A DNA stretch of 64,000 nucleotides. It comes from an uncultured Thermoleophilia bacterium (GTDB lineage: Bacteria; Actinomycetota; Thermoleophilia; UBA2241). Each line of letters opens with the position of its first letter. Positions within the stretch are counted from its first letter, which is position 1. The stretch lies in contig CAIYOD010000139.1 of NCBI GenBank assembly GCA_903927755.1, forward strand, positions 185 to 64,184. Reading direction: 5' to 3'. Below the pieces are notes generated by a model. That model had not been told where the DNA came from and did no database searches. It saw nothing but the letters and a program-made list of their open reading frames with translations. Below are positions 30,062-61,827 of the stretch, piece by piece. A program made the translations under genes and the position numbers.

Positions 30062-31603
30062 TCAGCCGCCGATGAGAAGGCGCAGCGCGCCTTCCGCGGC
30101 ATCGAGGAGCGGGCCCGGGAAGAGACCCACGAGCACGACGCCGAGCGCCGCGACCGTGACGGCGGTGATCACGCCGACCTGCGAGCTCTCGACTTCTTCC
30201 GTGACCTCCGCCCCTTCGGGCGCCTCCCGGAAGTACATGTACCAGACGACGCGCAGGTAGTAGTACGCGGACACGGCGCTCATCACGACGGCGATGATGG
30301 CGAGCCACGTGAGGTCCGCCTGGATGACCGCCGTGAACAGGTAGAACTTGCCCCAGAAGCCGACTGTCGGCGGGATGCCCGTCAGCGACACCATGAACAG
30401 CGCCATGAGGATCGCCGGCCACGGCAGGGTGCGGCCCAGGCCGGCGAGGCCTTCCAGCGAGTAATCGTACTCGCGGCGCGCCCGGATCCAGATGAGCACG
30501 CCGAAGGCGCCGAGGTTCATGAGCGCGTAGGCGGCCAGGTAGAACAGGATGGCGCTGACGCCGAGCGTGTCCCCGCTCTTGCCGGCGGCGATGATGCCCA
30601 GAGTCAGGTAGCCGGCGTGGGCGATGCTCGAGTAGGCGAGCATGCGCTTGAGGTTGCGCTGAGGCAGCGCGAGCACGTTCCCCACCACCATCGTGAGGAT
30701 CGCGAGAATGATCATGATGTGGCCCCAGTGGGTCCAGTCGGCGCCGGCGGCCATCAGGAAGAGCTTGGCGAAGCCGAGGAAGGCGGCGGCCTTGACGCCG
30801 GTGGCCATGAAGGCGGTGACCGGGGTGGGCGCCCCTTCGTAGACGTCAGGCGCCCAGCTGTGGAACGGCACGGCCGAGACCTTGAAGCCGAAGCCGGTGA
30901 CGACGAGCACGAAGGCGACCACCAGGAAGCCGTCGGCGGCGAGCCCGTTCAGCTGCAGGCCGGCGAGGCCGGCGGCGATGCCCGAGTAGGTCGTCGCGCC
31001 GGTCGCCGCGTACAGCAGCGCCAGGCCGAAGGCCAGGATCGCCGACGAGAAGGCGCCGGTGACGAAGTACTTGAGCGACGCCTCGGTCGACTTCTCGTCG
31101 CGCCAGATGTAGCCGGCGAGGATGTAGGTCGGCAGCGACATGAGCTCGAACGAGACGAAGAAGGCGATGATGTCGGTGCTGATCGCCATGCCGATCATGC
31201 CGGTGACGATCAGAAGGAGCAGGCCGTAGAACTCGCCGCGCGCGGCCTGCCGCCTGGCGAGGTATGCATCGGAGAGCAGCACGGCCAGGACGCCGATGGC
31301 GCAGAACAGCACGACCGCGTACAGCGCGTACCGGTCGTGCCCGATCATCCCCGCGAAACCGACGACGGCCTCGCGGCGACCGAACGTCAGGCCCCCGGTG
31401 AAGACACGCCAGACGGCGAAGCCCGCGGTCCACTGGCCCCACTGCCCGATGGCCACGGCGGCTCCGCACAGCAGGCCGGCCACGGCGATCCAGGCGAGCC
31501 CGCCCTTGCGCTTGAGGAAGAGGTCGGCGAGGAAGACCACGATCGCGGCGACCGCGACGACGACACCGGGGAGGATCACGGAGACGGTGTTGTTCAGCGG
31601 CAT
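30062..31603 (-). CDS. nuoN: NADH:quinone oxidoreductase subunit N
   Basis: 513-aa polytopic antiporter-like protein, last gene of the nuo operon and directly abutting nuoM. Confidence 0.9.
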   Translation of the reverse strand: MPLNNTVSVILPGVVVAVAAIVVFLADLFLKRKGGLAWIAVAGLLCGAAVAIGQWGQWTAGFAVWRVFTGGLTFGRREAVVGFAGMIGHDRYALYAVVLFCAIGVLAVLLSDAYLARRQAARGEFYGLLLLIVTGMIGMAISTDIIAFFVSFELMSLPTYILAGYIWRDEKSTEASLKYFVTGAFSSAILAFGLALLYAATGATTYSGIAAGLAGLQLNGLAADGFLVVAFVLVVTGFGFKVSAVPFHSWAPDVYEGAPTPVTAFMATGVKAAAFLGFAKLFLMAAGADWTHWGHIMIILAILTMVVGNVLALPQRNLKRMLAYSSIAHAGYLTLGIIAAGKSGDTLGVSAILFYLAAYALMNLGAFGVLIWIRARREYDYSLEGLAGLGRTLPWPAILMALFMVSLTGIPPTVGFWGKFYLFTAVIQADLTWLAIIAVVMSAVSAYYYLRVVWYMYFREAPEGAEVTEEVESSQVGVITAVTVAALGVVLVGLFPGPLLDAAEGALRLLIGG

Positions 31604-33196
31604 CTAGAACAGCCCCCTGACTGAGTCGACGAGCTGCGCCAGTGCGCCGATGCCCGCGCTCGTGTCGTTCAGCGACGGGGTGACGCGGTGGAGGATCACT
31701 TGCACGGGCACGTGCAGGAACTCGAGGAACGTCTGCGGGTAGACGCCCATCCAGATGACGAAGACGACCAGCGGGAGCAGCGAGACGATCTCGCGCAGGC
31801 CGAGGTCCTTGAGCGCGAACGAGGGCTTGACCTCGTCGTCGCCGCGGTCGTTGAACATCGTGCGCTGGAACATCCAGAGGAGATAGGCGGCGGCGAGGAT
31901 CACGCCGAGCGCCGCCACCGCCGCCATCCAGCGCGAGTACTCGAAGACACCGAAGAGGCTGAGGAACTCGCCCACGAAGCCGCTCAGCCCCGGCAGGCCC
32001 AAGGAGCCGAAAGCGAAGAACAGCAGGAAGCCGGCGGCAATCGGCATCGGCTTGGCGAGCGAGCCCATGTCGGCGATCAGCCGCGTGTGCGTGCGCTCGT
32101 AGATGAAACCGACCATGAGGAAGAGGGCGCCTGTGAGGAACCCGTGGCTGAGCATGACGAGGATCGCGCCCTCGATGCCCGCGGCGTTGCCGACGAGGGC
32201 GATGCCCGCGAAGATGCCCGCCGTGACGAAACCCATGTGGCTCACGCTCGAGTAGGCGACGAGCTTCTTGAGGTCCTTCTGCATCAGCGACACCAGCGCG
32301 CCGTACACGATCGCGACCACCGACAGGCCGACGACCCACGGGACGAAGGTGACGGCGGCGTCCGGGAAGAACGGCAGGCAGAAGCGCAGCATGCCGTAGC
32401 CGCCCATCTTCAGGAGGACGCCGGCCAGGATGACGGACCCTGCCGTCGGCGCCTCGACGTGCGCGTCGGGGAGCCAGGTGTGGACCGGGAACATCGGCAC
32501 CTTGATGGCGAAGGCCACGAAGAAGGCGAGGAACGCCCAGAACTGCAGGTGGTAGGAGTACACGACCTTGCTGAGCGCCTGGATGTCGAACGTCAGCGCC
32601 CCGCTCGAGTCCTTGACGTAGTACACGACGGCGATGATCGCCAGCAACATGAGCAGGCTGCCGATGAGCGTGAACAGGAAGAACTTGATCGCCGCGTAGA
32701 TGCGCCGCGGACCACCCCACACGCCGATGATGAAGTACATCGGGATGAGCATGGCCTCCCAGAACACGTAGAAGAGGAAGAGGTCGGTGGCGCAGAACAC
32801 GCCGACCATGCCGACCTGGAGCAGCAGCAGCGAGACGAAGAAGCCCAGCTCGCGGTCCTTGACGTAGTTCCAGCTGGCGATGATGACGATCACGCCGAGC
32901 AGCGTCGTGAGGAAGACGAGCAGGGCGGCGATGCCGTCGACGCCCATCCCGTAACGGATGTTGAGCGGCTTGATCCAGCTGATGTTCTCGGCGAACTGCA
33001 TGCCGGGCAGCTTGGTCTTGAAGGCGAAGAGCATCCACGCCGACAGCGCGAACGCGGCCAGCGTCACGATGAGCGAGATCACCTTGTAGACGACCGGCTT
33101 GCCACGGCCGACGAGCAGGATCAGCACCACGCCGGCGAGCGGCAGGAAGGTGATGACGGAGAGCAGCGGGAACCCGATCTGATCGCTCCAGCTCAT
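31604..33196 (-). CDS. nuoM: NADH:quinone oxidoreductase subunit M
   Basis: 530-aa antiporter-like membrane protein (MSWSDQIGFPLLSVITFLPLAG...), positioned between nuoL and nuoN. Confidence 0.9.
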   Translation of the reverse strand: MSWSDQIGFPLLSVITFLPLAGVVLILLVGRGKPVVYKVISLIVTLAAFALSAWMLFAFKTKLPGMQFAENISWIKPLNIRYGMGVDGIAALLVFLTTLLGVIVIIASWNYVKDRELGFFVSLLLLQVGMVGVFCATDLFLFYVFWEAMLIPMYFIIGVWGGPRRIYAAIKFFLFTLIGSLLMLLAIIAVVYYVKDSSGALTFDIQALSKVVYSYHLQFWAFLAFFVAFAIKVPMFPVHTWLPDAHVEAPTAGSVILAGVLLKMGGYGMLRFCLPFFPDAAVTFVPWVVGLSVVAIVYGALVSLMQKDLKKLVAYSSVSHMGFVTAGIFAGIALVGNAAGIEGAILVMLSHGFLTGALFLMVGFIYERTHTRLIADMGSLAKPMPIAAGFLLFFAFGSLGLPGLSGFVGEFLSLFGVFEYSRWMAAVAALGVILAAAYLLWMFQRTMFNDRGDDEVKPSFALKDLGLREIVSLLPLVVFVIWMGVYPQTFLEFLHVPVQVILHRVTPSLNDTSAGIGALAQLVDSVRGLF

Positions 33197-33197
33197 G

Positions 33198-35096
33198 TCA
33201 GCTCCCCCACACCCAGGCGAGGACGACGACGAGCGCGATCATGCCGCCGAACACGTACAGTGCGTAGTTCTGCACGCGGCCGGTCTGGATGGGCCGCAGC
33301 CGGTCGCCGATCCAGCCCCACAGCAACGCGATGCCGTTGACGGCGCCGTCGATGATCTTGGCGTCGACGAAGGTCCAGAGCCAACCGGCGAAGCCGAGCG
33401 TGGCGCCGACGGGCACGACCGCGTAGATGTCGTCCATGTAGACCTTGTTGAGGCTCGCCTTGTACGCCCACGGCACGCGCTCGGCGATGCGGCCGGGGAC
33501 GTCGGTCTGGCGCATGTACAGCCACCAGGCGATGGCGATGCCGACGAGCGCCAGCACCAGGGAGACTCCCATGAGCGCGCCGCCCTCGCCGATCCACGTG
33601 AACGGCTCGTGCTCCAGGTCGAAGAACACCGGCTCGAGGAAGCCGTGCAGCCAGCCCGACTCGGGCGGCACGCCGACCAGCAGGCCGAGCCCGAGCGCCG
33701 GTATCGAGAGAAGGATGAGCGGCACGGTCATGACCGGCGGCGACTCGTGGATGTGCGCCTGCACCTCGGCGTCGGAGCGGTTCTCGCCGAAGAACGTGAG
33801 GAAGATGAGGCGGAACACGTAGATGCCGGTGAGCAGCACGATGAGGAGCCCGACGGCCCAGACCAGGTAGTAGCCGTCGATGAAGGTCGCACCGAGGATC
33901 TCGTCCTTCGCCCAGAAGCCGGCGAAGGGGATGACGCCCACCATCGAAAGAGCGCCGATGAGCATCGTCCAGAACGTGATGGGGATCTTCTTGCGCAGCC
34001 CGCCCATCTTGCGCATGTCCTGCTCGCCGCCCATGGCGTGGATCACCGAGCCGGAGCAGAGGAACATGAGGCCCTTGAAGAAGCCGTGCGCGAACAGGTA
34101 GAAGATCCCGGCCACCCACGCTCCGGCCCCGAGGGCCACGAACATCAGCCCCAGGGACGAGATGGTGGAGTAGGCGATCACCTTCTTGATGTCGTTCTGG
34201 GTGATCGCGATGTACGCCGCGAAGATGGAGGTGAAGATCCCCACCACCATGACCACGGTCATCGCCGTGTCGCTCTGGATGAACAGCGGGTAGGAGCGCG
34301 CGACCATGTACACGCCGGCGTTGACCATGGTGGCGGCGTGGATGAGCGCGCTGACCGGCGTGGGGCCTTCCATGGCGTCCGGGAGCCAGACGTGCAGGGG
34401 GAACTGCGCGCTCTTGCCGATCGCGCCGGTGAAGAGCAGCAGGCAGATCCAGGTCATGAGGCTCGGCGCGATCTCGCCCTTCTCCGCCGCCTCGAACACG
34501 CCGGTGAACTGCAGCGTGCCGGTGGCGACGAAGATCGCGAACATCGCCAATGTGAAGCCGAAGTCGCCGACTCGGTTGACGATGAACGCCTTCTTGCCCG
34601 CCTGACTCGCGCTCTTCTTGCGGAACCAGAAGCTGATCAGCAGGTACGAGCAGAGGCCGACGCCCTCCCAGCCGAGGAACAGCAGGAGGTAGCTGTCGGC
34701 GAGGATGAGCACGAACATCGCGAACATGAACAGGTTGAGGTAGGCGAAGAACCGGTAGTAGCCCTCGTCCCCGTGCATGTAGCCGATCGAGTAGTAGTGC
34801 ACGAGCATGCCGATCACGCCGACGACCAGCAGCATGACGCCGGTCAGCGTGTCGACCTGGAAGCCCCACGGCACCGTGAACTGGCCGGCGGCGATCCAGG
34901 TGAAGGCGTTCCAGACGAACGTCTCCTCCTGGTGGCGGAACGCCCACTCGAAGCCGTAGACGGACAGCACGGCCGAGATGGTCACCATGGCCACCGGGAA
35001 GATGTGCGCGTGCTTGCCCCAGCGCTTGCCGAACAGCAGCGTCACGATGAACCCCAGCAGCGGCAGCAGCGGGATGAGCGCGACGGCGATCTTCAT
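33198..35096 (-). CDS. nuoL: NADH:quinone oxidoreductase subunit L
   Basis: Antiporter-like subunit with a long C-terminal extension. The preferred start is ATG at 35096 (MKIAVALIPLLPLLGF), preceded by GGAGGGGA. The ORF track starts it at 35114. Confidence 0.9.
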   Translation of the reverse strand: MKIAVALIPLLPLLGFIVTLLFGKRWGKHAHIFPVAMVTISAVLSVYGFEWAFRHQEETFVWNAFTWIAAGQFTVPWGFQVDTLTGVMLLVVGVIGMLVHYYSIGYMHGDEGYYRFFAYLNLFMFAMFVLILADSYLLLFLGWEGVGLCSYLLISFWFRKKSASQAGKKAFIVNRVGDFGFTLAMFAIFVATGTLQFTGVFEAAEKGEIAPSLMTWICLLLFTGAIGKSAQFPLHVWLPDAMEGPTPVSALIHAATMVNAGVYMVARSYPLFIQSDTAMTVVMVVGIFTSIFAAYIAITQNDIKKVIAYSTISSLGLMFVALGAGAWVAGIFYLFAHGFFKGLMFLCSGSVIHAMGGEQDMRKMGGLRKKIPITFWTMLIGALSMVGVIPFAGFWAKDEILGATFIDGYYLVWAVGLLIVLLTGIYVFRLIFLTFFGENRSDAEVQAHIHESPPVMTVPLILLSIPALGLGLLVGVPPESGWLHGFLEPVFFDLEHEPFTWIGEGGALMGVSLVLALVGIAIAWWLYMRQTDVPGRIAERVPWAYKASLNKVYMDDIYAVVPVGATLGFAGWLWTFVDAKIIDGAVNGIALLWGWIGDRLRPIQTGRVQNYALYVFGGMIALVVVLAWVWGS

Positions 35097-35124
35097 GTAC
35101 CCGGTCCCCTCCACGTGACCCCCG

Positions 35125-35433
35125 TCAGCCCTTGAGCTCGTCGAAAGTGTCGGTCTGCACGGTGCGCCTGTTGCGGTAGTTGGCGATCACGATCGCCAGG
35201 CCGACGGTCACTTCGGCGGCGGCCAGCACGATGATGAAGAGCGCGAAGAGCGTGCCCGCACCCTTGGCGCCGGCGCGGAAGTTGGCGGTCGCGACCAGAG
35301 CCAGGTTCACGGCGTTGAGCATGATCTCGAGGCTCATCACCACGAGGATGACGTTGCGGCGCGCGAGCACGCCGAACGCGCCGATGCAGAACAGCAGGAA
35401 CGAGAGCAGCAGCCACCAGTACAGGGCGTTCAC
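35125..35433 (-). CDS. nuoK: NADH:quinone oxidoreductase subunit K
   Basis: GTG start at 35433 preceded by GAAGGAG. The product reads VNALYWWLLLSFLLFCIGAFGVLARRNVILVVMSLEIMLNAVNLALVA.... The ORF-track entry 35125..36060 is an over-extension through nuoJ in another frame. Confidence 0.9.
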   Translation of the reverse strand: MNALYWWLLLSFLLFCIGAFGVLARRNVILVVMSLEIMLNAVNLALVATANFRAGAKGAGTLFALFIIVLAAAEVTVGLAIVIANYRNRRTVQTDTFDELKG

Positions 35434-35942
35434 GGGCGCTCCTTCTCGCGCGTCGCCAGCACGATGGCGCCGATCATGGCGGCGACGAGCACGAGCGAGA
35501 CGAGCTCGAACGGGAACACGTAGCGGTCGAAGATGAGCCGGGAGAGCTGGCGCAGGCCCGGTGTCAGCGACTTGTCGCCGATCTGGCCGATGTCGGACGA
35601 CAGCGCAACGAAGGCGAGCACCGCGGCGCCGACGAGCGCCACGACGGCGGCGATCGCCGTCTGGCGGTTGAAGAAGAGGTCGTACCCGCCGTGCTGCACC
35701 TCGGTGAGCATGATCGCGAAGATGATGACGATCGAGATGGCGCCGACGTACACGAGGATCTGGATGATGGCCACGAGCGGCGCGTTGAGCAGCGCGTAGG
35801 CGAACGCCACGCCGAGGAAGCAGAACACCATCGAGACGGCGGAGTACATGATCTTCCTGAACAGCACGACGCCGAGGCCGCAGACGAGCACCCACGCGGC
35901 CACGATGACGAAGAACCAGGGATGGAAGTCGCCGCCGGGCAT
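35430..35942 (-). CDS. nuoJ: NADH:quinone oxidoreductase subunit J
   Basis: 170-aa protein with about 5 TM helices (…IQILVYVGAISIVIIFAIML…). It overlaps nuoK by 4 nt and the upstream fusion gene by 1 nt. Confidence 0.9.
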   Translation of the reverse strand: MPGGDFHPWFFVIVAAWVLVCGLGVVLFRKIMYSAVSMVFCFLGVAFAYALLNAPLVAIIQILVYVGAISIVIIFAIMLTEVQHGGYDLFFNRQTAIAAVVALVGAAVLAFVALSSDIGQIGDKSLTPGLRQLSRLIFDRYVFPFELVSLVLVAAMIGAIVLATREKERP

Positions 35943-38416
35943 CAGGCCTCTCCCCCCGGGTCGTCCAGCGAAACCGGGTCGTCCTTGATCGGCTGCCAGA
36001 CCCAGCCCAGGCCACGCTCGGCGTCGAGGGCGTGCGGGACGAGATCGGCGACGGTCTCACGCAGCGAAGCGACCGGGCGCGACTCGCGGATGTAGAGCGA
36101 CTCGCGCGACATCGTCGTGCGGCTGTAACCGGCGAGCTCGAAGAAGTCGGTCTGCTCGAGAGCGTCGTAGGGACAGACCTCGACGCACTCGCCGCAGAAG
36201 ATGCAGCGGCTCTCGTCGAGGTCGTAGCTGCCGAGGATGCGCGGGTTGGTCTCGATGGAGCCCGTGGGGCACGTCTCGGCGCACTTGCCGCAGCTCACGC
36301 AGCCGACCAGCTGGAGCGGCAGGTTGTCGGCGGTGCTGACGATGGTGTCGAAGCCGCGGTCCATGTTGTCGTAGCAGCTCGACCCGACCTCCATGCGGCA
36401 CACGCGCACGCAGCGGCCGCAATTGATGCAGCGATTGGGCTCGCGCATGATGAAGTCGTGGCGGAAGTCGGCCGGGTAGTCGTGGGCGTCGCCACCGTGG
36501 AAACGATTCTTGAACACCTCGTACTCGATGCCGTACCGCTGCAGGTCGCACTTGCCGTTGGCCGGGCAGTAGCACTGCAGGCAGAGCTCGGCGCCGCGGA
36601 CGGCCTCGTCCTCACTGAAGCCGAGCTCGATCTGCGTGAAGTTGGTCTTGCGGTCGCCCGGCTCGAGCTTGGGCATCTCGGCCGGCGGGCTGGGATGCGA
36701 CACGTCGGTGGTCATGTCGATGAAGACCGGCGGGATCTCGGCCATGCGCGCGAGGCGCGGGTCCAGATCGGTCCGGTCGCTCAGCGCGTTGAAGAACGGC
36801 GTGGCCTTGAGCTCGGCGAGCGACTGTGAGAGGTCCGCCATGTCCTCGCCGCGCAGGAAGGCGTCCATGCTCCAAGCGGCCTTCTTGCCCTGGGCGACGG
36901 CTTGGATCACGGTCTGCGCGCCGAGCACGGCGTCGCCGCCGGCGAACACGCGCGGGTCCTCCGTCTGGAAGGTCCAGTCGTCCACCTGGATGGTGCGCCA
37001 CTTGGTGCGCTTGACGCCCTGCTCCTCGCTGGTGCCGTCGAGATCGGGGAACTGGCCGATGGCGGCGATGACCTGGTCGCACTCGATGACGAACTCGGAA
37101 CCCTCGACGGGTACGGGGCGGCGGCGGCCGGAGGCATCGGGCTCGCCGAGCTCCATGCGCTGCATCTCGATGCCGGTGACCTTGTTGGCGGCGTCGGCGA
37201 TCACGCGCACGGGGGCGCACAGGAGCTCGAGCTTGACGCCCTCCTCCTCAGCCTCGTCGACCTCGGTGTGGTGCGCCGGCATCTCCTTGCGGGAGCGGCG
37301 GTAGAGGCAGGTGACCTCGGCCGCGCCTTTGCGCACGCTGGTACGGCAGGCGTCCATGGCGGTGAAGCCGCCGCCGATCACCACGACCTTCTTCCCCACG
37401 TGCACGTCGCCGTTGAGCTCCAGCTCACCGAGGAAGTCGACCGCGGTGACGACGCCCTCGGCGTCCTCGCCGTCGCAGCCCATGCCGTTGCTGTTGAACG
37501 CGCCGAGAGCGAGGAACACGGCGTCGTACTCGGCGGTGAGCTCCTCGAGCTGGTAGTCGACGCCAAGCCGGCTGTTCGGCTGCAACTCGACGCCCATGCG
37601 CCACAGCACGTTGATCTCCTTGTCCAGGAGGTCGCGCGGCAGGCGGTAGCTCGGGATGCCGTAGCGAAGCATGCCGCCCGGCTTGGGCAGGGCCTCGAAG
37701 ATCTTGACGGAGTGGCCCTCGAGCCGGGCGTAGAAGGCGGCGGCGAGGCCGGCGGGCCCGCCGCCCACGATGGCGATCTTCTTGCCGGTGTCGGCCTTGG
37801 GCTCGACCGGCAGCAGCAGCTCGCCCGTCTGCTCCTCGTCGATCGTCTGATCGGCCATGAAGCGGTGGAGCTGGCAGATGGTGATGGGGTGCTCGACGAG
37901 CTGGCGGCGGCAGGGACCCTCGCACGGTCGCGGGCACACGCGCCCGAGCACGGCCGGGAACGGCAGGTCCTCGCGCAGCTTGCGCACGCCGTTCTTGTAG
38001 TCCTTGTGCGCGATGTAGTCGAGGAACTGCGGGATCTTGATGTGCGTCGGGCAGGCGTCGCGGCAGGGCGGCGTGCAGAAGGAGTTGTGGTCGCTGAGCA
38101 GCAGCTCGAGGTAGAGGTGCCGCATGGCGCGGACCTTCTCGGTGCTCGTCTTGACGACCATGCCGTCGCTCACGGCCGCCGAGCAGCTCGGGACCATCTT
38201 GCGGGCGCCCTCGACCTCGACGATGCACATGCGGCACGCCGCCGTGGCGGGCAGGCGCGGCTCGTAGCAGAGCGTCGGGATGTGGACGCCGATGCGCTGG
38301 GCGGCCTCGAGGATGGTGTCGCCGCGGTCGCAGGCGACCTCCTGCCCGTCGATGGTGACCAGCACCTGATCGGGTCGCGGCTTGGCCTGCGTGATGTTCT
38401 CGACGGTGGTCGCCAT
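35942..38416 (-). CDS. Fusion protein. It has a NuoG-type N-terminal [2Fe-2S] domain, then a GltD-type FeS/FAD/NAD(P)H oxidoreductase module, then NuoG-type [4Fe-4S] motifs, then the C-terminal half of NuoI.
   Basis: 824-aa single ORF with four recognisable segments. The [2Fe-2S] region is TLCYEPRLPATAACRMCIVEV. The GltD Fer4_20-like region is FCTPPCRDACPTHIKIPQF...GRVCPRPCEGPCRR. The dinucleotide fold is KIAIVGGGPAGLAAAFY, with a second GKKVVVIGGGFTAMD. NuoG-like CYCPANGKCDLQ, NRCINCGRCVRVC and CVSCGKCAETCPTGSIE follow. The terminal SRCIFCGECVEVCPYDALEQTDFFELAGY matches NuoI motif 2. Confidence 0.85.
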   Translation of the reverse strand: MATTVENITQAKPRPDQVLVTIDGQEVACDRGDTILEAAQRIGVHIPTLCYEPRLPATAACRMCIVEVEGARKMVPSCSAAVSDGMVVKTSTEKVRAMRHLYLELLLSDHNSFCTPPCRDACPTHIKIPQFLDYIAHKDYKNGVRKLREDLPFPAVLGRVCPRPCEGPCRRQLVEHPITICQLHRFMADQTIDEEQTGELLLPVEPKADTGKKIAIVGGGPAGLAAAFYARLEGHSVKIFEALPKPGGMLRYGIPSYRLPRDLLDKEINVLWRMGVELQPNSRLGVDYQLEELTAEYDAVFLALGAFNSNGMGCDGEDAEGVVTAVDFLGELELNGDVHVGKKVVVIGGGFTAMDACRTSVRKGAAEVTCLYRRSRKEMPAHHTEVDEAEEEGVKLELLCAPVRVIADAANKVTGIEMQRMELGEPDASGRRRPVPVEGSEFVIECDQVIAAIGQFPDLDGTSEEQGVKRTKWRTIQVDDWTFQTEDPRVFAGGDAVLGAQTVIQAVAQGKKAAWSMDAFLRGEDMADLSQSLAELKATPFFNALSDRTDLDPRLARMAEIPPVFIDMTTDVSHPSPPAEMPKLEPGDRKTNFTQIELGFSEDEAVRGAELCLQCYCPANGKCDLQRYGIEYEVFKNRFHGGDAHDYPADFRHDFIMREPNRCINCGRCVRVCRMEVGSSCYDNMDRGFDTIVSTADNLPLQLVGCVSCGKCAETCPTGSIETNPRILGSYDLDESRCIFCGECVEVCPYDALEQTDFFELAGYSRTTMSRESLYIRESRPVASLRETVADLVPHALDAERGLGWVWQPIKDDPVSLDDPGGEA

Positions 38417-38418
38417 GC

Positions 38419-40332
38419 TCAGGCCTCAGCTCCCGAAGCGCCGACCACAGCCTGCTCGACGCCCGACCGTACTTTGACGGCGTCGAACTTGCAGACCTGG
38501 CGGCAGGTGTCGCACTTGATGCAGTTGGCGACGTCGATGACGTGCAGCTGCTTCTTCTCGCCGGTGATGCACGACGTGGGGCACTTCTTGGCACAGAGCG
38601 TGCAGCCGGTGCAGGCGTCGGCGTCGATGTAGTACGTGATGAGCGACTTGCACTTGCCGGCCGGGCAGCGCTTCTCGCGGATGTGGGCCTCGTACTCGTC
38701 GCGGAAGTACTTGATGGTCGTGAGCACCGGGTTCGGGGCGGTGCCGCCGAGCGCGCAGAGGGAGCCCTCGATGATGTAGTGGCCCATCTCCTCGAGCAGC
38801 TCGATGTCGCCCTCGCGACCGTCGCCCTCGATGATGCGGTCGAGGGTCTCGAGCATGCGCTTGGTGCCGAGGCGGCAGGGGACGCACTTGCCGCACGATT
38901 CCTTCTGCGTGAAGTCGAGGAAGAAGCGCGCGAGGTCGACCATGCAGGTCTCTTCGTCGACCACGACCATGCCGCCGGAGCCGACGATGGCGCCGGTCGC
39001 GGCGAGGCTCTCGTAGTCGACCGGCGTGTCGAGCAGGTGTGCCGGGACGCAGCCGCCGGACGGGCCGCCGAGCTGGACGGCCTTGAACTGCTTGCCGCCC
39101 TTGATGCCGCCGCCGACGTCGAAGATCAGGTGGCGGAGACTGGAGCCCATGGGCACCTCGACGAGCCCGCCGTTGACGATCTTGCCGGCGAGGCTGAAGG
39201 CCTTGGTGCCGCGGCTGGTCTCGGCGCCGAGCGTAGCGTAGGCCTCGGCGCCGTTCTTGACGATCCACGGGACGTTGGAGAACGTCTCGACGTTGTTGAT
39301 GTTCGTGGGCTTGCCCCAGAGGCCGCTGACCGCCGGGAACGGCGGCCGCGTGCGCGGCATGCCGCGCTTGCCCTCGATGGAGGCGATGAGCGCCGTCTCC
39401 TCGCCGCAGACGAAGGCGCCGGCGCCGAGCTTGAGATGCAGGTTGAACTCCCAGCCGGTGCCGAAGATGTCGTTACCCAGATAGCCGCGCTCCTCGGCGG
39501 CGGCGACCGCCATGGTGAGGCGCTTGACGGCCGTCGGGTACTCGGCGCGCACGTACACGTAGCCCTCGTGGGCGCCGATGGCGTAGCTGCCGATGATCAT
39601 GCCCTCGATGACGGCGTGCGGGTCGCCCTCGAGGATGGAGCAGTCCATGAACGCGCCGGGGTCGCCCTCGTCGGCGTTGCAGATGAGGTACTTCTCGTCG
39701 CTCTTGGACTGGTTGGCGAATTTCCACTTGACGCCCGTGGGGAACCCGGCGCCGCCGCGGCCGCGGATGCCCGAGTCGGTGATCTCTTCGATGATCCACT
39801 CGGGAGTCTTCTCCGTGAGAGCCATCCGGGCGGCCTCGTACCCGCCGACGGCGACGTAGGCGTCGATGGTCTCGGGGTTGATGACGCCGACGTCGCGCAG
39901 CGCGATGCGCGTCTGCAGCTTGTAGAAGCCGATGTCGCGCCAGTCGCGGATGCGCTCGCCGGTCTGCTCGTCCTTGTAGAGGAAGCGCTCGACCGGCTGA
40001 CCGCCCTTGAGGTGCTCCTCCACCACCTTGGTGACGTCCCTGGGCTTGAGGTGGCCATACAGCGTGTCGTCGCTGAGCACCACGACGGGGCTCATCGAGC
40101 ACAGGCCGTGGCAGCCGATGATGCTGACCTCGACCTTGTCGCCGAGACCGGCCGTCTGGACCTCCTGCACGAACGCATCGTAGACGGCCATGGAGCCGGC
40201 GAACAGGCAGGCGGTGCCGGCGCAGACCTTGACGTTGTAGCCGCCGCCCGGACGCTCGCCGACGCTCACGTTGCGAGCCTCGGTCTCGGGAGCCGGGATG
40301 GTGATCTCGTCAGTCATGGTGCCTCTGCTCAC
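38419..40332 (-). CDS. NuoF-like NADH-binding flavoprotein of the HydB/HndC/StnC type. It has an extra N-terminal thioredoxin-like [2Fe-2S] domain and a C-terminal 2x[4Fe-4S] domain.
   Basis: 637-aa ORF. N-terminal VKVCAGTACLFAG...IIGCHGLCSMSP. FMN/NADH motifs GRGGAGFPTG and ICNADEGDPGAF. N3-type cluster ESCGKCVPCRLG...SLCALG. C-terminal CTGCTLCAKKCP and CIKCDTCRQVC. Confidence 0.9.
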   Translation of the reverse strand: MSRGTMTDEITIPAPETEARNVSVGERPGGGYNVKVCAGTACLFAGSMAVYDAFVQEVQTAGLGDKVEVSIIGCHGLCSMSPVVVLSDDTLYGHLKPRDVTKVVEEHLKGGQPVERFLYKDEQTGERIRDWRDIGFYKLQTRIALRDVGVINPETIDAYVAVGGYEAARMALTEKTPEWIIEEITDSGIRGRGGAGFPTGVKWKFANQSKSDEKYLICNADEGDPGAFMDCSILEGDPHAVIEGMIIGSYAIGAHEGYVYVRAEYPTAVKRLTMAVAAAEERGYLGNDIFGTGWEFNLHLKLGAGAFVCGEETALIASIEGKRGMPRTRPPFPAVSGLWGKPTNINNVETFSNVPWIVKNGAEAYATLGAETSRGTKAFSLAGKIVNGGLVEVPMGSSLRHLIFDVGGGIKGGKQFKAVQLGGPSGGCVPAHLLDTPVDYESLAATGAIVGSGGMVVVDEETCMVDLARFFLDFTQKESCGKCVPCRLGTKRMLETLDRIIEGDGREGDIELLEEMGHYIIEGSLCALGGTAPNPVLTTIKYFRDEYEAHIREKRCPAGKCKSLITYYIDADACTGCTLCAKKCPTSCITGEKKQLHVIDVANCIKCDTCRQVCKFDAVKVRSGVEQAVVGASGAEA

Positions 40333-41090
40333 CCCTTCGCACCGCCGACCTCTTCCATGAGGTCGCGGATGATCTTGCGTGTCTGGTCAGGGGTGAGGCC
40401 GCCGTAGGTCTGGTCGCCGATGCGCATGACGGGAGCCTGCGAGCAGGCGCCCATGCAGGCGACGGACGACAGCGTGAACTTCATGTCCGTGGTCGTCTTG
40501 CCGTCGGCGATCCCGAGTTCTTCCTCCAGAGCCTCGGTGATCTGGACCGCTCCCGCGACGTGGCAGGCGGTGCCGTGGCAGACGTCGATGATGTACTCGC
40601 CGACCGGTGAGAGCCGGAACTGGTTGTAGAAGCTGGAGACGCCGTAGATCTGGCTCAGCGAGACGCCGGTCTGCAGGCTGAGCTCCTGGAGAGCGACGCG
40701 CGGCAGATAGCCATAGACCTCCTGCGCGTTCTGCAGCATGGCGATGAGGCCGGTGCCGTGCTCGTAGTAGTCGTCGAGCACCGGCTGCAGATCCTTGAGC
40801 TCGATGCCCTGCTGCGCCGCGAGGCGCGCCTCGGCGATGCGCGCCGCGTTGGGCACCGGCAGACGGTACTTGCTCGTGTGATTGACGCGGATGACCTGCA
40901 CCGGGCAGTTGCTCTCGCACAGGGTGCAGGAGCGGCAGCGCGGCTCGCCGCTCGCGGGGTCGATGACCACGCGGAAGAGGCCGCGGCTGCGCGCCGGCAG
41001 CGCCTCGCGCTGCTCCGGGTACTGGACGGTGAGCTTCTTCTTGGGCAGATGGCTCATCGTCTGCCGCATGGCCTTGAACATGCCGAGCAT
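40329..41090 (-). CDS. Fusion protein: N-terminal half of NuoI (first [4Fe-4S] motif) joined to a complete NuoE-type [2Fe-2S] domain
   Basis: 253-aa single ORF. LTVQYPEQREALPARSRGLFRVVIDPASGEPRCRSCTLCESNCPVQVIRV matches the NuoI N-terminal half. IAMLQNAQEVYGYLP...DVCHGTACHVAG...SVACMGACSQAPV matches NuoE. The ATG overlaps the nuoH stop by 1 nt, and the stop overlaps the next start (ATGA). Confidence 0.85.
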   Translation of the reverse strand: MLGMFKAMRQTMSHLPKKKLTVQYPEQREALPARSRGLFRVVIDPASGEPRCRSCTLCESNCPVQVIRVNHTSKYRLPVPNAARIAEARLAAQQGIELKDLQPVLDDYYEHGTGLIAMLQNAQEVYGYLPRVALQELSLQTGVSLSQIYGVSSFYNQFRLSPVGEYIIDVCHGTACHVAGAVQITEALEEELGIADGKTTTDMKFTLSSVACMGACSQAPVMRIGDQTYGGLTPDQTRKIIRDLMEEVGGAKG

Positions 41091-42208
41091 CAGGCGCTCA
41101 CCACCGGCTGGCGCTCACGCTGCTTGCGCAGGCGGCGCTTGAGGATCGGGTCGAACAGGCCCACGAAGGCGAAGAAGGAGACCCAGCCGAAGACCAGGAG
41201 GCCCCACTTCCAGCTCGGTACCCACAGGATGATCGCCGCCGTGGCGAGGATGTTGACGAGCCCGAGCGGGATGAGGATCTTCCAGGCGAACGCCATGAGC
41301 TGATCCACCTGCAGGCGCGGGATGCTGAAGCGGATCCAGACCAGCGCCGACACGAGCACGTACGTCTTGGCGAGGAACCAGAAGATACCGATCCACTCGA
41401 TGCCCCAGAACTGGATGGCGCCGGCCCAAGGGCCCATCCAGCCGCCGAAGAACAGCGTCACGGCGACCATGGACATGATCGTGAGGCCCGCGTACTCGTT
41501 GAGGTAGAACATGCCGAAGCGCATGCCCGAGTACTCGGTGGCGTAGCCGGCGACCAGCTCGGACTCGGACTCGGGCAGGTCGAACGGGCCGCGGTTAAGC
41601 TCGGCGATCGAGGCGATGTAGAACATGAGGAAGGTGAACGGCGCGTAGAAGCCGATCCACTCGTAGTTCGCCTGGAAGGCGACGATGACGTCGACGCGCA
41701 GCGACCCGACGATCATCGCCACGATGAGCAGGCTGAGGAGCATCGGGATCTCGTAGCTGATCATCTGGGCGGCGGCGCGCAGCGCGCCGACCAGCGAGTA
41801 CTTGTTGCGCGACGCCCAGCCGCCCATGAGGATCGAGAGCGTCGTGAAGCTGGTGATGGCGACGAGGAAGATGACGCCGACGTTGAGACTCGTCGCCATG
41901 AAGCCGCCGGTGTACGGGATCACGAGCTGGATGGAGACGGCGCCGATCATCACCGTCACCGGCGCGAGCGTGAACAGCACCGGGTCGGCGAGCAGCGGAC
42001 GGAAGTCCTCCTTGCCCATCATCTTGAAGGCGTCGGCGACGCTCTGCAGCACGCCCTGCGGGCCGGTCCGGTTGGGGCCGAGCCGGTCGCCGATGAACGC
42101 CATGAAGCGGCGCTCGTAGAAGATGTTGACCAGCGCCGCGACGAACACCACCGCGTAGGCGATGACGACGAAGAGGACGGCCCTGAGGATGTCGACGAGG
42201 ATGTCCAC
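41090..42208 (-). CDS. nuoH: NADH:quinone oxidoreductase subunit H
   Basis: 372-aa polytopic protein. FYERRFMAFIGDRLGPNRTGPQGVLQSVADAFK matches the NuoH/ND1 N-terminal signature. Confidence 0.9.
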   Translation of the reverse strand: MDILVDILRAVLFVVIAYAVVFVAALVNIFYERRFMAFIGDRLGPNRTGPQGVLQSVADAFKMMGKEDFRPLLADPVLFTLAPVTVMIGAVSIQLVIPYTGGFMATSLNVGVIFLVAITSFTTLSILMGGWASRNKYSLVGALRAAAQMISYEIPMLLSLLIVAMIVGSLRVDVIVAFQANYEWIGFYAPFTFLMFYIASIAELNRGPFDLPESESELVAGYATEYSGMRFGMFYLNEYAGLTIMSMVAVTLFFGGWMGPWAGAIQFWGIEWIGIFWFLAKTYVLVSALVWIRFSIPRLQVDQLMAFAWKILIPLGLVNILATAAIILWVPSWKWGLLVFGWVSFFAFVGLFDPILKRRLRKQRERQPVVSA

Positions 42209-43423
42209 TTAGCGGTCGATGCCTCCGAGCACGAGGTCGATGCTGCCCGAGATGGCCACCGCGTCGGCGATCTTGTTGCCGCTGAGGAGCTTCGGGAACA
42301 GCTGCAGGTTGCAGAAGCAGGGGTCGCGGTACTTGAGCCGGTACGGATACCGCGACCCGTCGCTCTCGATGTACGTGCCGTACTCGCCGCGCGGGTTCTC
42401 CTGGCCGACGTAGGCGGAGCCCGGCGGCGGCGTGATGACGTAGGGAGCGCGCAGCGAGCCCAGCTGGACCGGGCCTTTAGGGAGCATGTCCAGGCACTGT
42501 TCGATGATCTTGAGACTCTCACGCATCTCGTCCATGCGGCAGCGATAGCGGTCGAAGATGTCGCCGTGCTGCGCCGTGATGACCTCGAAGTCGAGCTCCG
42601 GGTACACCGAGTACGGCCGCGTGCGGCGCAGGTCGAGGTCGATGCCGGAGGCCCGCGCGTTGGGGCCGGTGATGCCGTAGTCGACCACGTCCTGCTGGGT
42701 GATGACGCCCTTGGCCTGCGTGCGCTGCAGGAAGACGGCGTTCGTGTCGACCAGCGCCTCGTACTCCTTGATCTTCTTCGGGAACATCTTGAGGAAGTCG
42801 CGGCACTTCTCCACCCAGCCGTCGGGGAGGTCGTAGCGCACGCCGCCGAAGCGATAGTAGTTGAACATCATGCGCGCGCCGGTGAGCTCCTCCATGAGGT
42901 CGAGGATGATCTCGCGGTCGCGGAACATGTAGAAGACCATCGCGGTGCCGAGCGGCGAGAGGTCGGCGGTGAACGTGCCGACCGCCACAAGGTGGCTGGC
43001 GATGCGCATGAGCTCGCCGGTGATGACGCGGATGAACTCCGCCCGCCGCGTGACCTGCATGCCGGCGAGCTTCTCGACGGTCATGACGTAGGCCCACTCG
43101 CAGTTGATGCTGGCGAGGTACTCCGTGCGGTCGACGATCGGGATGTACTGGAAATACGTGCGCTTCTCGGCCAGCTTCTCCTTGCAGCGATGCAGGTAGC
43201 CGATGACCGGGATCACGTCCTTGACGAGCTCGCCGTCGAGGGTCACGACCAGGCGCAGCACGCCGTGCGTGCTCGGATGCTGCGGCCCCATGTTGACGAC
43301 GACCTCGTTGAAGGCCAGGCCGTCGACGTCGGAGCCCTCGCCGCGCGCCGTCGACTCCTCGATGCGGCGCAGGGCGAGCTTCACGGCCTCGTCCGGCTCG
43401 GGAGTCTCGAACTGGTCATACAT
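42209..43423 (-). CDS. nuoD: NADH:quinone oxidoreductase subunit D
   Basis: Start at ATG 43423 (MYDQFETPEP). Contains NMGPQHPSTHGVLRL and the C-terminal SIDLVLGGIDR. The ORF track extends it to 43483. Confidence 0.9.
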   Translation of the reverse strand: MYDQFETPEPDEAVKLALRRIEESTARGEGSDVDGLAFNEVVVNMGPQHPSTHGVLRLVVTLDGELVKDVIPVIGYLHRCKEKLAEKRTYFQYIPIVDRTEYLASINCEWAYVMTVEKLAGMQVTRRAEFIRVITGELMRIASHLVAVGTFTADLSPLGTAMVFYMFRDREIILDLMEELTGARMMFNYYRFGGVRYDLPDGWVEKCRDFLKMFPKKIKEYEALVDTNAVFLQRTQAKGVITQQDVVDYGITGPNARASGIDLDLRRTRPYSVYPELDFEVITAQHGDIFDRYRCRMDEMRESLKIIEQCLDMLPKGPVQLGSLRAPYVITPPPGSAYVGQENPRGEYGTYIESDGSRYPYRLKYRDPCFCNLQLFPKLLSGNKIADAVAISGSIDLVLGGIDR

Positions 43424-43910
43424 GCGGGTGGTTCTCCGCGAGGTCGACGTAGTCTTTGCGCAGCGGGTGGCCGACGAAATCATCCTTGAGCAGAATGCGG
43501 CGCAGGTCGGGGTGGCCGGTGTAGACGATGCCGACCATGTCCCAGGACTCGCGCTCGTGCCAGTCGGCCGCCGGCCAGACGCCGGTCACCGTGTCGACCT
43601 CCGGCTTGGCGCGCGGCAGGTCGACATGCAGCTCGAGATAGGTGTTCGTCTTCCAGGAGTACACGTGGTAGACGCTCTCGAACGAGGTGCCGCGGTCGAC
43701 GCCGGCGATCCAGTTGAGCGTCTCGTAGCCGGCGTCGGCGTCGGCCTTGAGGCGCGCGGCGACGTCCTTGAGCTTCGCCGGCGTGCAGCGGGCGACGACG
43801 GTGTCCGGCTCCTGGATGCGCACGTCGTCCAGCTCGCCGGCGAAGCGCTCCACGAGGAGCGCCGCGATGGCGTCCATGCTCATCGGATTGCTGCCGACCT
43901 GCAGGCCCAT
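43416..43910 (-). CDS. nuoC: NADH:quinone oxidoreductase subunit C
   Basis: The in-frame ATG at 43910 gives MGLQVGSNPMSMDAIAALLVERF.... Contains PAADWHERESWDMVGIVYTGHPDLRRIL (NuoC signature). The upstream part of ORF 43416..44255 overlaps nuoB in another frame. Confidence 0.85.
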   Translation of the reverse strand: MGLQVGSNPMSMDAIAALLVERFAGELDDVRIQEPDTVVARCTPAKLKDVAARLKADADAGYETLNWIAGVDRGTSFESVYHVYSWKTNTYLELHVDLPRAKPEVDTVTGVWPAADWHERESWDMVGIVYTGHPDLRRILLKDDFVGHPLRKDYVDLAENHPHV

Positions 43911-43912
43911 GA

Positions 43913-44482
43913 TCAGGCGTCCGATTCCGAAGCGACGTCGGAGGCCGGCGCGAGCGCCTCGGCGGCGGCCGGCTTGGAGGGCACGAACTGGTACTGCTGG
44001 ATCTTGCCCTGCAGCTCCAGCAGGCCCTGGAACAGCGCCTCGGGGCGCGGCGGGCAGCCGGGGATGTACACATCGACCGGCACGATCTTGTCGACGCCGT
44101 TGACCACGTTGTAGCCGTCGTAGAACGGGCCGCCGCTGGTGGCGCAGGCGCCCATGCTGATGACCCACTTGGGCTCCGACATCTGGTCGTACAGGCGCTT
44201 GAGCACCGGCGCCATCTTCTCGTTGACGGTGCCGGCCACGATCATGAGGTCGCACTGCCGCGGCGTGGGGCGGAACACCTCCATGCCGTAGCGGGCGATG
44301 TCGTAGCGGGCGAACCCCGACGTGAGCATCTCGATGGCGCAGCAGGCCAGGCCGTACGTGAACGGGAAGACCGAGTGCGAGCGCGCCCAGCTGAAGATGA
44401 AGTCGGCGGTGGTGGTGATGACGTTCGGCTCGCTGAAGTGCTCGAGCTTCGGGTACCTGACCGCCTTGACGCGCTCACTCAT
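43913..44482 (-). CDS. nuoB: NADH:quinone oxidoreductase subunit B
   Basis: The start at 44482 ([12 protein letters not shown]) overlaps the nuoA stop (ATGA). N2-cluster cysteine motifs [19 protein letters not shown] and IPGCPP are present. Confidence 0.9.
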
Positions 44483-44847
44483 GCCCACTCGAGGGCCCCC
44501 TTGCGCCAGGCGTACAGCAACCCGAAGGCGAGCACGGCGATGAACAGCAGCATCTCGATGAACCCGGCGGTGCCGAGGCCGCGGAAGACGAGCGCCCACG
44601 GGAACAGGAAGGCCGACTCGACGTCGAAGACGAGAAAGAGGAGACCGTAGACGAAGTAGCGGACCGCGAACGGCTGCCACGGATTGCCGACCGGCGGGAT
44701 GCCGCATTCGTAGGGCTGCAGCTTCTCCGGCGTGAGGTGGCTCGGATTGATGAGCTTGGAGAACAGAAGGATGACGACGACCAGCGCGGCTCCGGCGACG
44801 ATGAAGAGCCAGACATACAGCCAGTCTGTGAGGTATGCATTCGTCAT
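44479..44847 (-). CDS. nuoA: NADH:quinone oxidoreductase subunit A
   Basis: The ATG at 44847 gives [25 protein letters not shown].... Contains YECGIPP and [15 protein letters not shown] motifs. Confidence 0.9.
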
Positions 44848-44928: not shown

Positions 44929-45004
44929 ACCCCCTTCTACACCGGTGGGGGTATACGGGTCTCTCGCGGATTTGCAGGTATTTCCTCCGCACGAGGAGGC
45001 CGCG

Positions 45005-45033
45005 TTGCACTTCGGCCCCGCGGCTCGTACGAT
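45005..45033 (+). promoter_or_regulatory. Candidate sigma70-type promoter for tatA-tatC
   Basis: TTGCAC-N17-TACGAT, 38 nt upstream of the tatA ATG. GAGGTGA lies just before the start. This is a pattern match only. Confidence 0.3.
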
Positions 45034-45070
45034 GGAGCGGCATCGCTACCACGACCGAGGTGACCCCCAC

Positions 45071-61690: not shown

Positions 61691-61827
61691 GGGGGGGACG
61701 ATTCTAGCCGAGGCGGAGCCTCGCGCGCCACTCCCTCCGGGCTCCCGGAGTCGTCCCCTCGGGCAAGAGGCGCCGCCTGCGCGCGATAACGCACATGCCG
61801 GCCTCAACCCAAACCCTTAACCAGACC

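Follow-up and report, generated by a model that had tools for sequence, protein, structure and literature searches.

How a flavin module of the glutamate synthase type comes to stand within a respiratory complex I operon is the question raised by a gene of an uncultured Thermoleophilia bacterium (assembly GCA_903927755.1, contig CAIYOD010000139.1). The gene is an 824-amino-acid (aa) open reading frame (ORF) with an ATG start at 35942..38416 of the window, by which we mean the whole stretch of 64,000 nucleotides that was analysed; coordinates refer to the window and to its minus strand unless the plus strand is given. An initial annotation had regarded the product as a NuoG subunit of complex I with an inserted GltD-type oxidoreductase module for NADPH and flavin adenine dinucleotide (FAD). 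The module and its position stood, but the protein is not a modified NuoG: the insertion is inherited from NfnA/StnC (expect value (E) 1e-192; 39-44% identity), the large subunit of soluble Bfu-type enzymes, and the C-terminal end is one half of NuoI. We call the protein BfuA::I(C). The locus as a whole is probably best explained by a Bfu module that was spliced into NuoI of complex I to form a proton-pumping NAD(P)H:menaquinone oxidoreductase.

The ORF was confirmed on the minus strand, and its translation contained all of the motifs quoted in the initial annotation: TLCYEPRLPATAACRMCIVEV and LLLSDH, FCTPPCRDACP and GRVCPRPCEGPCRR, the dinucleotide-fold motifs KIAIVGGGPAGLAA and KKVVVIGGGFTAMD, and the later Cys motifs CYCPANGKCDLQ, NRCINCGRCVRVC and CVSCGKCAETCPTGSIE. 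Pfam assigned Fer2_4 to aa 17-92 (38141..38368; E 1e-19), in agreement with the proposed HydA/NuoG-type [2Fe-2S] domain (cluster A1), in which Cys50, 61, 64, and 78 are invariant. The GltD-like centre was likewise borne out: aa 111-611 (36584..38086), which follow His110, matched Fer4_20 (aa 114-194, E 1e-22) and Pyr_redox_2 (aa 213-510, E 2e-35), as expected of a GltD/NfnL-type module with two [4Fe-4S] sites (A6, A7) and FAD and NADPH folds, and the large subunit of NfnI (5jca_L) matched this module in a PDB sequence search (E 5e-95). Cluster motifs of the NuoG type do resume at the predicted distance, since His110 in LLLSDH is separated by ~500 aa from the CxxCxC...C motif at aa 612-623; a weak Fer4_Nqo3 match lies at aa 655-720. 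In an alignment of 91 sequences, His110 and Cys612, 615, 617, and 623 were invariant both in the family and in 77 soluble relatives. The separation of the His from the Cys of this HydA/NuoG-type His-ligated cluster motif by the GltD/NfnL FAD/NADPH module is a family trait of Bfu-type Nfn/Stn. The remainder of the motif (C612, C615, C617, C623) and the HydA-type 2x[4Fe-4S] domain (CINCGRCVRVC, CVSCGKCAETCP) occupy aa 612-725 (36242..36583), aligned to NfnA/StnC and have Cys residues invariant in 119 sequences.

The canonical NuoG model TIGR01973 failed on the protein (110.9 bits against a cut-off of 470), and its best-scoring stretch was limited to aa 20-114. The top NCBIfam model was PRK12814, 'putative NADPH-dependent glutamate synthase small subunit', which covered aa 17-674 with 642 bits (cut-off 916). 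Public labels of the protein are 'FAD-dependent oxidoreductase' at NCBI and 'formate dehydrogenase major subunit' or 'GltD-like oxidoreductase/formate hydrogenlyase subunit...' at JGI.

A PDB sequence search matched aa 17-745 to large subunits of this type: NfnA of C. saccharolyticus (9bov_A, E 1e-192 over query 18-744) was retrieved, and StnC of S. ovata (8oh5_C, E 9e-169) and NfnA of T. sibiricus (9n5u_A, E 5e-160) were also matched. An AlphaFold2 (AF2) model was built on the 91-sequence alignment, which comprised 14 family rows and the 77 soluble relatives, and was confident for aa 10-726 with a mean predicted local distance difference test score (pLDDT) of 83. Foldseek with this model ranked the same three chains first, with ~716-719 aligned columns and 39-44% identity. 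Thus aa 17-725 are the known large subunit of Bfu-type Nfn/Stn transhydrogenases (NfnA, equivalent to StnC; BfuA). The initial annotation had named StnA as the comparator for the large subunit, but in the structure paper the large Stn subunit is StnC. Since aa 17-725 correspond to an architecture already described and structurally solved, the GltD insertion is inherited and is not a new event in NuoG; the idea that GltD had been newly inserted into NuoG was dropped on the basis of the PDB and representative-library searches.

What differs is the C-terminal end. Pfam found no Molybdopterin or Molybdop_Fe4S4 domain, and the protein stops at aa 824. At the place of the FdhF-like domain of NfnA/StnC, aa 726-824 (35942..36241) hold the C-half of NuoI, with SYDLDESRCIFCGECVEVCPYDALEQTDFFELAGY and a conserved tail. 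NCBIfam NuoI models matched aa 724-796 only and only with the second half of their profiles (PRK05888, positions 103-167 of 204; TIGR01971, positions 69-114 of 121), and a NuoI-like FELAGY.R stretch follows the Cys motif within the last ~100 residues. The claim that a NuoI C-half takes the place of the molybdopterin-like domain was therefore upheld. The motif at the fusion site is of the ferredoxin type, CxxCxxCxxxCP, whereas 75 of the 77 soluble relatives lack the third Cys (Gly in 60) and keep the flanking Cys, giving a molybdopterin-type CxxCxxxC. A dicluster Fer4_7 match at aa 706-752 had offered Cys motifs 2 and 3 as a self-contained dicluster domain. This pairing was rejected on two grounds. 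Motifs 1 and 2 together match the HydA-type domain of NfnA/StnC, and motif 3 is NuoI-like, as are its flanks, with the partner motif on the BfuC fusion. The tail after the NuoI part (aa ~775-824, window 35942-36100, minus strand) has a conserved motif, LVPHV.D...G.GW.W.PIK.D, which was matched by no profile and had an AF2 pLDDT below 50. Some relatives lengthen this tail with Ala/Pro-rich extensions, up to 880 aa.

The other half of NuoI, which the initial annotation had missed, is located two genes upstream. A 253-aa fusion protein begins with the NuoI N-half (aa 1-80, 40851..41090), which holds the stretch TVQYPEQREALPARSRG...CRSCTLCESNCP and the first CxxCxxCxxxCP motif and is kept in 52 distinct family sequences. 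This protein matched TIGR01971 at profile positions 3-66 of 121 only (E 6e-13), and its aa 4-70 aligned with NDUFS8/NuoI chains in the PDB search. NuoI is thus split: the N-half starts the BfuC protein, and the C-half replaces the FdhF-like domain at the end of BfuA. With the N-half at the head of the BfuC gene and the C-half at the end of BfuA::I(C), two genes further downstream, the whole three-gene module lies inside nuoI. To join the halves in silico, aa 1-80 of the BfuC fusion protein were combined with aa ~727-824 of BfuA::I(C). The joined sequence matched TIGR01971 in a single stretch (positions 3-114 of 121) with 97 bits, compared with 48 and 56 bits for the halves alone, and was colinear and unbroken with residues 30-142 of human NDUFS8. 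The matches ran past the Cys motifs into the NuoI-specific flanks YPE..LP.R.RG at the N-terminus and FELAGY.R after motif 2. Both CxxCxxCxxxCP motifs of NuoI are therefore present but reside on two polypeptides. tblastn detected no further NuoI-like segment in the 64-kb window.

The two upstream genes are BfuC and BfuB, which form an electron-bifurcating core by homology. The BfuC part, a thioredoxin-like [2Fe-2S] subunit (NfnC/HydC; StnA in the Stn structure paper), occupies aa ~92-253 of the fusion ORF (40329..40817). Pfam assigned 2Fe-2S_thioredx to it with E 8e-47, so that the thioredoxin-like [2Fe-2S] (C1) domain of the Bfu family is present, and for aa ~92-250 the top PDB chains were NfnC and HydC (9n5u_C NfnC, E 1e-48; also 9bov_C and 8oh5_A). 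BfuB (637 aa, 38419..40332) is the FMN (flavin mononucleotide)/NAD(H) subunit and has the domain make-up of the Bfu family in Pfam: an N-terminal thioredoxin-like [2Fe-2S] domain, Complex1_51K (FMN), NADH_4Fe-4S, and a C-terminal 2x[4Fe-4S] ferredoxin-like domain. Alignments showed the N-terminal [2Fe-2S] motif, the H..KRCPA..C Zn-site motif, and the ligands of the C-terminal 2x[4Fe-4S] domain, and the Cys ligands of all three are kept in 47 family sequences. BfuB matched bifurcating HydB/NfnB/StnB chains over the full length with ~805-812 bits but true NuoF/Nqo1 with ~300-410 bits. The two neighbours are thus not an ordinary NuoE and NuoF.

The complex I setting itself was right, as Pfam on the neighbours placed the gene inside a nuo operon. 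Thirteen genes are arranged in the order nuoABCDH, I(N)::BfuC, BfuB, BfuA::I(C), nuoJKLMN, so that all membrane subunits of complex I (A, H, J, K, L, M, N) and the Q-module subunits B, C, and D are present. Upstream of the module lie nuoA (44479..44847, 122 aa from an internal ATG; a 122-aa Oxidored_q4 gene occupies this place in homologous loci), nuoB (43913..44482, 189 aa; Oxidored_q6 in homologous loci), nuoC (43416..43910, 164 aa; Complex1_30kDa in homologous loci), nuoD (42209..43423, 404 aa from an internal ATG; Complex1_49kDa, E 5e-93), and nuoH (41090..42208; NADHdh, E 2e-106). Downstream are nuoJ (35430..35942; Oxidored_q3), nuoK (35125..35433, 102 aa; Oxidored_q2, also a 102-aa gene in homologous loci), nuoL (33198..35114; Proton_antipo_N and Proton_antipo_M), nuoM (31604..33196; Proton_antipo_M), and nuoN (30062..31603; Proton_antipo_M). 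The nuoB translation carries the N2 ligand motifs, among them IPGCPPRPE, and the nuoD product has HPSTHG and TEYL stretches, which we take to supply the quinone-site His and Tyr as in Thermus Nqo4. The four junctions of the module genes are, in order, TGATG, GTGA, a 2-nt gap, and TGATG, the last formed by the stop codon of BfuA::I(C) and the overlapping start of nuoJ; these junctions suggest translational coupling. Divergent from nuoA are a tatA-like ORF (44945-45640, plus strand, with the TatA-like part starting at an internal Met) and tatC (45645-46451, plus strand). The same neighbours stand beside the operon in a relative with 64% identity (locus L004).

A locus scan that covered one genome per GTDB species found the arrangement at 74 loci, all in uncultured metagenome-assembled genomes (MAGs) labelled Thermoleophilia, Actinomycetes, or Actinomycetota, bar one short contig. 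This contig (JBLMXT010000054.1, 2749 bp, locus L010) is labelled 'Deltaproteobacteria' and is most likely misbinned; its fusion gene is 91% identical to the query segment. The loci came from soil, peat (palsa, bog, and fen), sediment of lakes, and anaerobic reactors. Where the flank was long enough, the order was D-H-I(N)-C-B-A-I(C)-J-L without exception, gene calls on independent contigs agreed, and the arrangement with its overlapping stop and start codons is kept in more than 50 genomes. The I(N)::BfuC ORF was intact in 55 of 61 cases with a length of 251-267 aa (251-254 aa in 54), and the other six were from error-prone assemblies. In one peat MAG contig (L003/L037, 5091-7021), BfuB was called as two ORFs of 457 and 185 aa, which is probably an assembly frameshift because the near-identical ENA contig L002 has a single ORF of 643 aa.

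Among the matches listed, at least 120 clusters (90% identity) of ~824 aa showed 75-92% identity to BfuA::I(C). All 30 cluster Cys of the protein were invariant in 119 family sequences. The FAD/NADPH segment was 86% identical on average, the same as the rest of the protein, and the motifs GGGPAG, GGGFTAMDA, and YRR are kept in most members; the FAD motif, GGGFTAMDA, YRR, and all of the A6/A7 Cys were intact in ~115 of the 119 sequences. We take YRR to bind the 2'-phosphate of NADPH, as in GltD/NfnL-type enzymes. Cys181 and Cys681 are invariant in the family and are mostly other residues elsewhere, and LHRF or LHRY is found at aa 183-186 in all eight variants listed for the 119 sequences. The family-specific residues at aa 181, 184, and 681 could be altered cluster ligands.

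A search over 1.84 billion library representatives (50% identity) detected the NuoI tail in one other representative only, P0121, which is 64% identical and stands in the same operon. The remaining top hits were at most 48% identical, with alignments ending at query positions 712-767, and most of them were 1000-1390 aa long with a molybdopterin-type CxxCxxxC at that place. The closest tail-less relatives belong to Acidobacteriota and Bacillota, and one from Bacillota is encoded in a stand-alone BfuC-BfuB-BfuA operon, with the gene order of the insert and without nuo genes within 8 kb. NuoD had its best PDB matches with NDH-1 NdhH (348 bits), Thermus Nqo4 (334 bits), and M. smegmatis NuoD (299 bits). 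Since NuoD is slightly nearer to NdhH, and since the nuo genes are in the order ABCDH...JKLMN, the core under the module may be of the 11-subunit type. Such a core may have acquired a soluble Nfn-type cassette within nuoI; alternatively, nuoI may have been duplicated on both sides of the cassette, with later loss of complementary halves.

All three subunits of the module are homologous to those of NfnABC/StnABC, the Bfu-type NADH-dependent ferredoxin:NADP+ oxidoreductases (C. saccharolyticus 9bov, S. ovata 8oh5, T. sibiricus 9n5u). They share the gene order C-B-A with the single stand-alone soluble operon examined, a BfuA with the [2Fe-2S] domain, the His-cluster motif broken by the GltD/NfnL FAD/NADPH module and the HydA-type 2x[4Fe-4S] domain, and a BfuB and BfuC that retain each cofactor ligand of the bifurcating core. 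In contrast to the soluble enzymes, the NuoI C-half replaces the FdhF-like C-terminal domain together with the A5 cluster, whose motif is absent; BfuC bears the NuoI N-half; the genes lie within a nuo operon, flanked by nuoH and nuoJ; and His184 takes the place of Lys as the A7 ligand, with Cys181 and Cys681 specific to the family. In the Stn family the Lys ligand of A7 is described as 'strictly conserved', and the FdhF-like domain, which is partial in T. sibiricus NfnA, was reported to be necessary for purifying the active Stn complex (PMC10482914). The module is thus a member of the Bfu family that departs from Nfn/Stn in three defining features: the Lys ligand, the FdhF-like domain, and the soluble stand-alone operon.

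Schut et al. (2022, PMC9304861) predicted a 'Nuo-Bfu' complex for Geobacter, Deferribacteres, Planctomycetes, and Nitrospirae, with menaquinone as the expected acceptor and confurcation of NADH and reduced ferredoxin as the proposed reaction. As in Nuo-Bfu, a Bfu-type module stands in the middle of a nuo cluster and replaces canonical NuoEFG. Nuo-Bfu has 14 separate subunits A-N and, judging from the description in that paper, presumably a separate NuoI and the usual gene order, whereas the present operon has 13 genes in the order ABCDH-[C B A]-JKLMN, a split and fused NuoI, and a Thermoleophilia host. BfuA of Nuo-Bfu was described with clusters A1-A5 and without mention of a GltD flavin module, whereas a second flavin/NADPH site is present here; the term 'Actinobacteria' is absent from the main text and the supplement text of that paper. 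The recruitment looks independent of Nuo-Bfu. A looser analogy is provided by Mbx-like operons, in which a GltD-related flavoprotein replaces NuoI (Degli Esposti 2015, PMC4758237). There too a GltD-type NAD(P)H flavoprotein stands at the NuoI position of a complex I-like membrane complex, but it substitutes for NuoI in an Mrp/Mbx-type complex, whereas here both NuoI halves are kept and a whole BfuABC is added within a true nuo operon. With the canonical N-module (NuoE/F/G) and NuoI, the present system shares FMN, the B1/N3-type cluster, the A1/N1b-type [2Fe-2S] cluster, [4Fe-4S] relays, N6a/N6b, N2, and quinone, and its membrane arm and NuoB, C, D, and H are ordinary. It differs from canonical complex I in that NuoI consists of two half-domains on two polypeptides and in that, by homology, the exit to NuoI would pass through the cluster on the HydA FS4A/A4 side and not through the His-ligated N5-type cluster, which would face the GltD module. 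The literature searched contained no account of a NuoI divided in this way or of a nuo operon with an Nfn-type module in it. The novelty therefore lies in the context, a Bfu module inside nuoI of a complex I operon, and the NfnA/StnC architecture itself is known.

In the soluble enzymes, electrons are described to pass along FAD, A7, A6, A3, A2, A1, the B1-FMN-C1 bifurcation site, B3/B4, and ferredoxin, and the A2-A4-A5 branch (C1/C2 in Stn naming) is regarded as a non-functional evolutionary remnant (PMC11829005, PMC10482914). A4 is the predicted entry port for a partner subunit in Type 2 Bfu enzymes (PMC9304861). In BfuA::I(C), 21 residues separate Cys716, the last Cys of the HydA-type dicluster domain, from Cys738, the first Cys of the NuoI C-half motif. 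From this spacing and the published paths we infer the following scheme. The two NuoI halves would reassemble into one NuoI ferredoxin fold, and N6a and N6b would each be ligated by Cys from both polypeptides, because in 2x[4Fe-4S] ferredoxin folds a cluster takes three Cys from one motif and the Cys of the CP pair from the other. The reassembled fold would anchor the module by docking on NuoB, C, D, and H (the Q-module) in the usual manner of complex I. Electrons would then leave the BfuA chain by the A2-A4 branch and pass through N6a, N6b, and N2 to menaquinone, so that a branch without an outlet in the soluble enzymes would lead onward here. The A2 node would be fed by NADH via FMN, B1, and A1, and by NADPH via FAD, A7, A6, and A3. 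With such an exit, the FMN/NAD(H) site, the FAD/NADP(H) site, and the ferredoxin-type B3/B4 domain would all be wired to the proton-pumping quinone reductase. The conserved B3/B4 domain may bring in ferredoxin as well, through confurcation of the kind proposed for Nuo-Bfu or through ferredoxin reduction driven by quinone. A 634-aa protein encoded at 59903-61807 has POR_N, TPP_enzyme_C, and Fer4 domains and resembles the alpha subunit of indolepyruvate/2-oxoacid:ferredoxin oxidoreductases; because of this gene, the organism appears to make or use reduced ferredoxin.

The enzyme is thus most likely a respiratory NAD(P)H:menaquinone oxidoreductase that would accept NADH and NADPH, possibly also reduced ferredoxin by confurcation, and pump protons. 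A more far-reaching picture, which we offer tentatively and regard as doubtful on balance, is that of one machine, in which a complete flavin-based bifurcating core would be hard-wired to a proton-pumping complex I, so that the proton-motive force would be coupled to four redox pools: NAD(H), NADP(H), ferredoxin, and menaquinone. Its N6a and N6b would be shared by two polypeptides, its link would be the dead-end branch of the soluble enzymes, and it would represent a second, independent recruitment of an input head onto an 11-subunit complex I.

Several observations weigh against the proposed oxidoreductase. The genetic architecture is read directly from the DNA, but assembly, wiring, the substrates and their coupling, and direction of flow are deduced from it. 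Neither the halves nor the joined sequence (97 bits) reach the curated cut-off of 113 bits for the NuoI profile. The absence of a separate nuoI holds for the window and for the 10-kb flanks of the loci. AF2 confidence drops at aa 727, next to the fusion point (aa ~726), with pLDDT below 50 at aa 727-769 and 790-824 and block means of 51-54 in between. Such values are in keeping with a half-domain that lacks its partner, but the shallow alignment there could equally explain them. The AF2 model of the joined NuoI, run without an alignment, gave a pLDDT of 31 and was uninformative. At the A7 ligand position, all 14 family rows have His184, compared with Lys in 76 of the 77 soluble relatives. The YRR motif is lost in the divergent sequences P0117, P0120, and P0121 (loci L002-L005), which have YW.S, SS.R, and SP.C instead while keeping the FAD motifs and Fe-S ligands, and P0121 also has a deletion in the NADPH domain. 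Because of these three lineages, NADPH use may not be universal in the family and may have been lost or altered in them.

The last two observations would also be expected if the complex were an ordinary single-donor NADH dehydrogenase, in which the Bfu module does no more than stand in for NuoEFG and the GltD unit, without NADPH turnover, is carried along as a vestige or for structural reasons. We consider this quite unlikely, since a vestigial module of 500 aa would be expected to decay or disappear, whereas the nucleotide-binding motifs and A6/A7 Cys are intact in nearly all family sequences and the segment is as well conserved as the rest of the protein. It is unlikely, too, that the complex is chiefly a bifurcating or energy-linked device, which would send electrons from NADH downhill to menaquinone and uphill to ferredoxin or NADP+ in the manner of FixABCX, or would use the proton-motive force or quinol to drive reverse flow to NADPH or reduced ferredoxin. 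The conserved hallmarks of BfuBC (the B1-FMN-C1 ligands, the Zn site, and the B3/B4 ferredoxin-like domain), the 2-oxoacid:ferredoxin oxidoreductase gene in the same window, and habitats that include peat, sediment, and anaerobic reactors are all consistent with such a device. However, once the cluster chain is permanently connected to a high-potential acceptor, NAD(P)H can simply be oxidised downhill, and bifurcation is unnecessary. The direction of flow is not readable from the sequence, and this alternative refines the proton-pumping NAD(P)H:menaquinone oxidoreductase more than it contradicts it.

CxxCxxCxxxCP-type motifs are common, and the polyferredoxin FwdF outscored NuoI chains on the joined sequence owing to its repeated motifs. 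A soluble Nfn/Stn operon could accordingly just sit among the nuo genes, with generic ferredoxin motifs mistaken for NuoI halves and no physical coupling. This is highly improbable, as the matches extend into the NuoI-specific flanks and, across the junction, remain colinear with NuoI/NDUFS8, no other nuoI stands between nuoH and nuoJ in the operon, the FdhF-like domain reported to be needed for active soluble Stn (PMC10482914) is missing, and the arrangement with its overlapping codons persists in more than 50 genomes. Broken high-scoring segment pairs or short ORFs in some long-read MAG loci would fit an assembly chimera, a frameshift artefact, or a decaying pseudogene cluster, but an artefact is scarcely conceivable: the same architecture recurs in the 74 MAG loci, which are independent and stem from many studies, as well as in contigs of JGI, ENA, and Logan, the ORFs of the window are intact, and the ligand residues are all invariant at 58-92% identity. 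The proton-pumping NAD(P)H:menaquinone oxidoreductase with a Bfu module inside NuoI thus remains our preferred explanation.

Elsewhere in the window, a large cluster for surface-polysaccharide and nonulosonic-acid biosynthesis extends over ~4300-28900 on both strands. It includes genes for Wzz/GNVR, GT1/GT4 glycosyltransferases, two epimerase/dehydratases, a DegT aminotransferase, a pyruvyl transferase, NeuB, a CMP-sugar cytidylyltransferase, a PglD-like acetyltransferase, and a Bac_transf initiating transferase.

The locus bears on how complex I gained its NADH-oxidising head: a soluble redox module of three genes, with its nearest relatives in lineages of the anaerobe type, appears to have been joined to an 11-subunit core through the splitting of one ferredoxin-fold subunit. 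It points to a possible present or past use of the 'dead-end' A2-A4(-A5) branch of Nfn/Stn enzymes, and a [4Fe-4S] ferredoxin domain built from two polypeptides would be unusual, and open to test, as an example of how proteins evolve and assemble. An active bifurcating core would unite chemiosmotic coupling with flavin-based bifurcation in a single complex. An active NADPH site would make the complex a proton-pumping respiratory enzyme with direct oxidation of NADPH, which would link anabolic reducing power to respiration. Since its carriers are widespread uncultured Thermoleophilia of soil and peat, the enzyme may matter for their energy metabolism.

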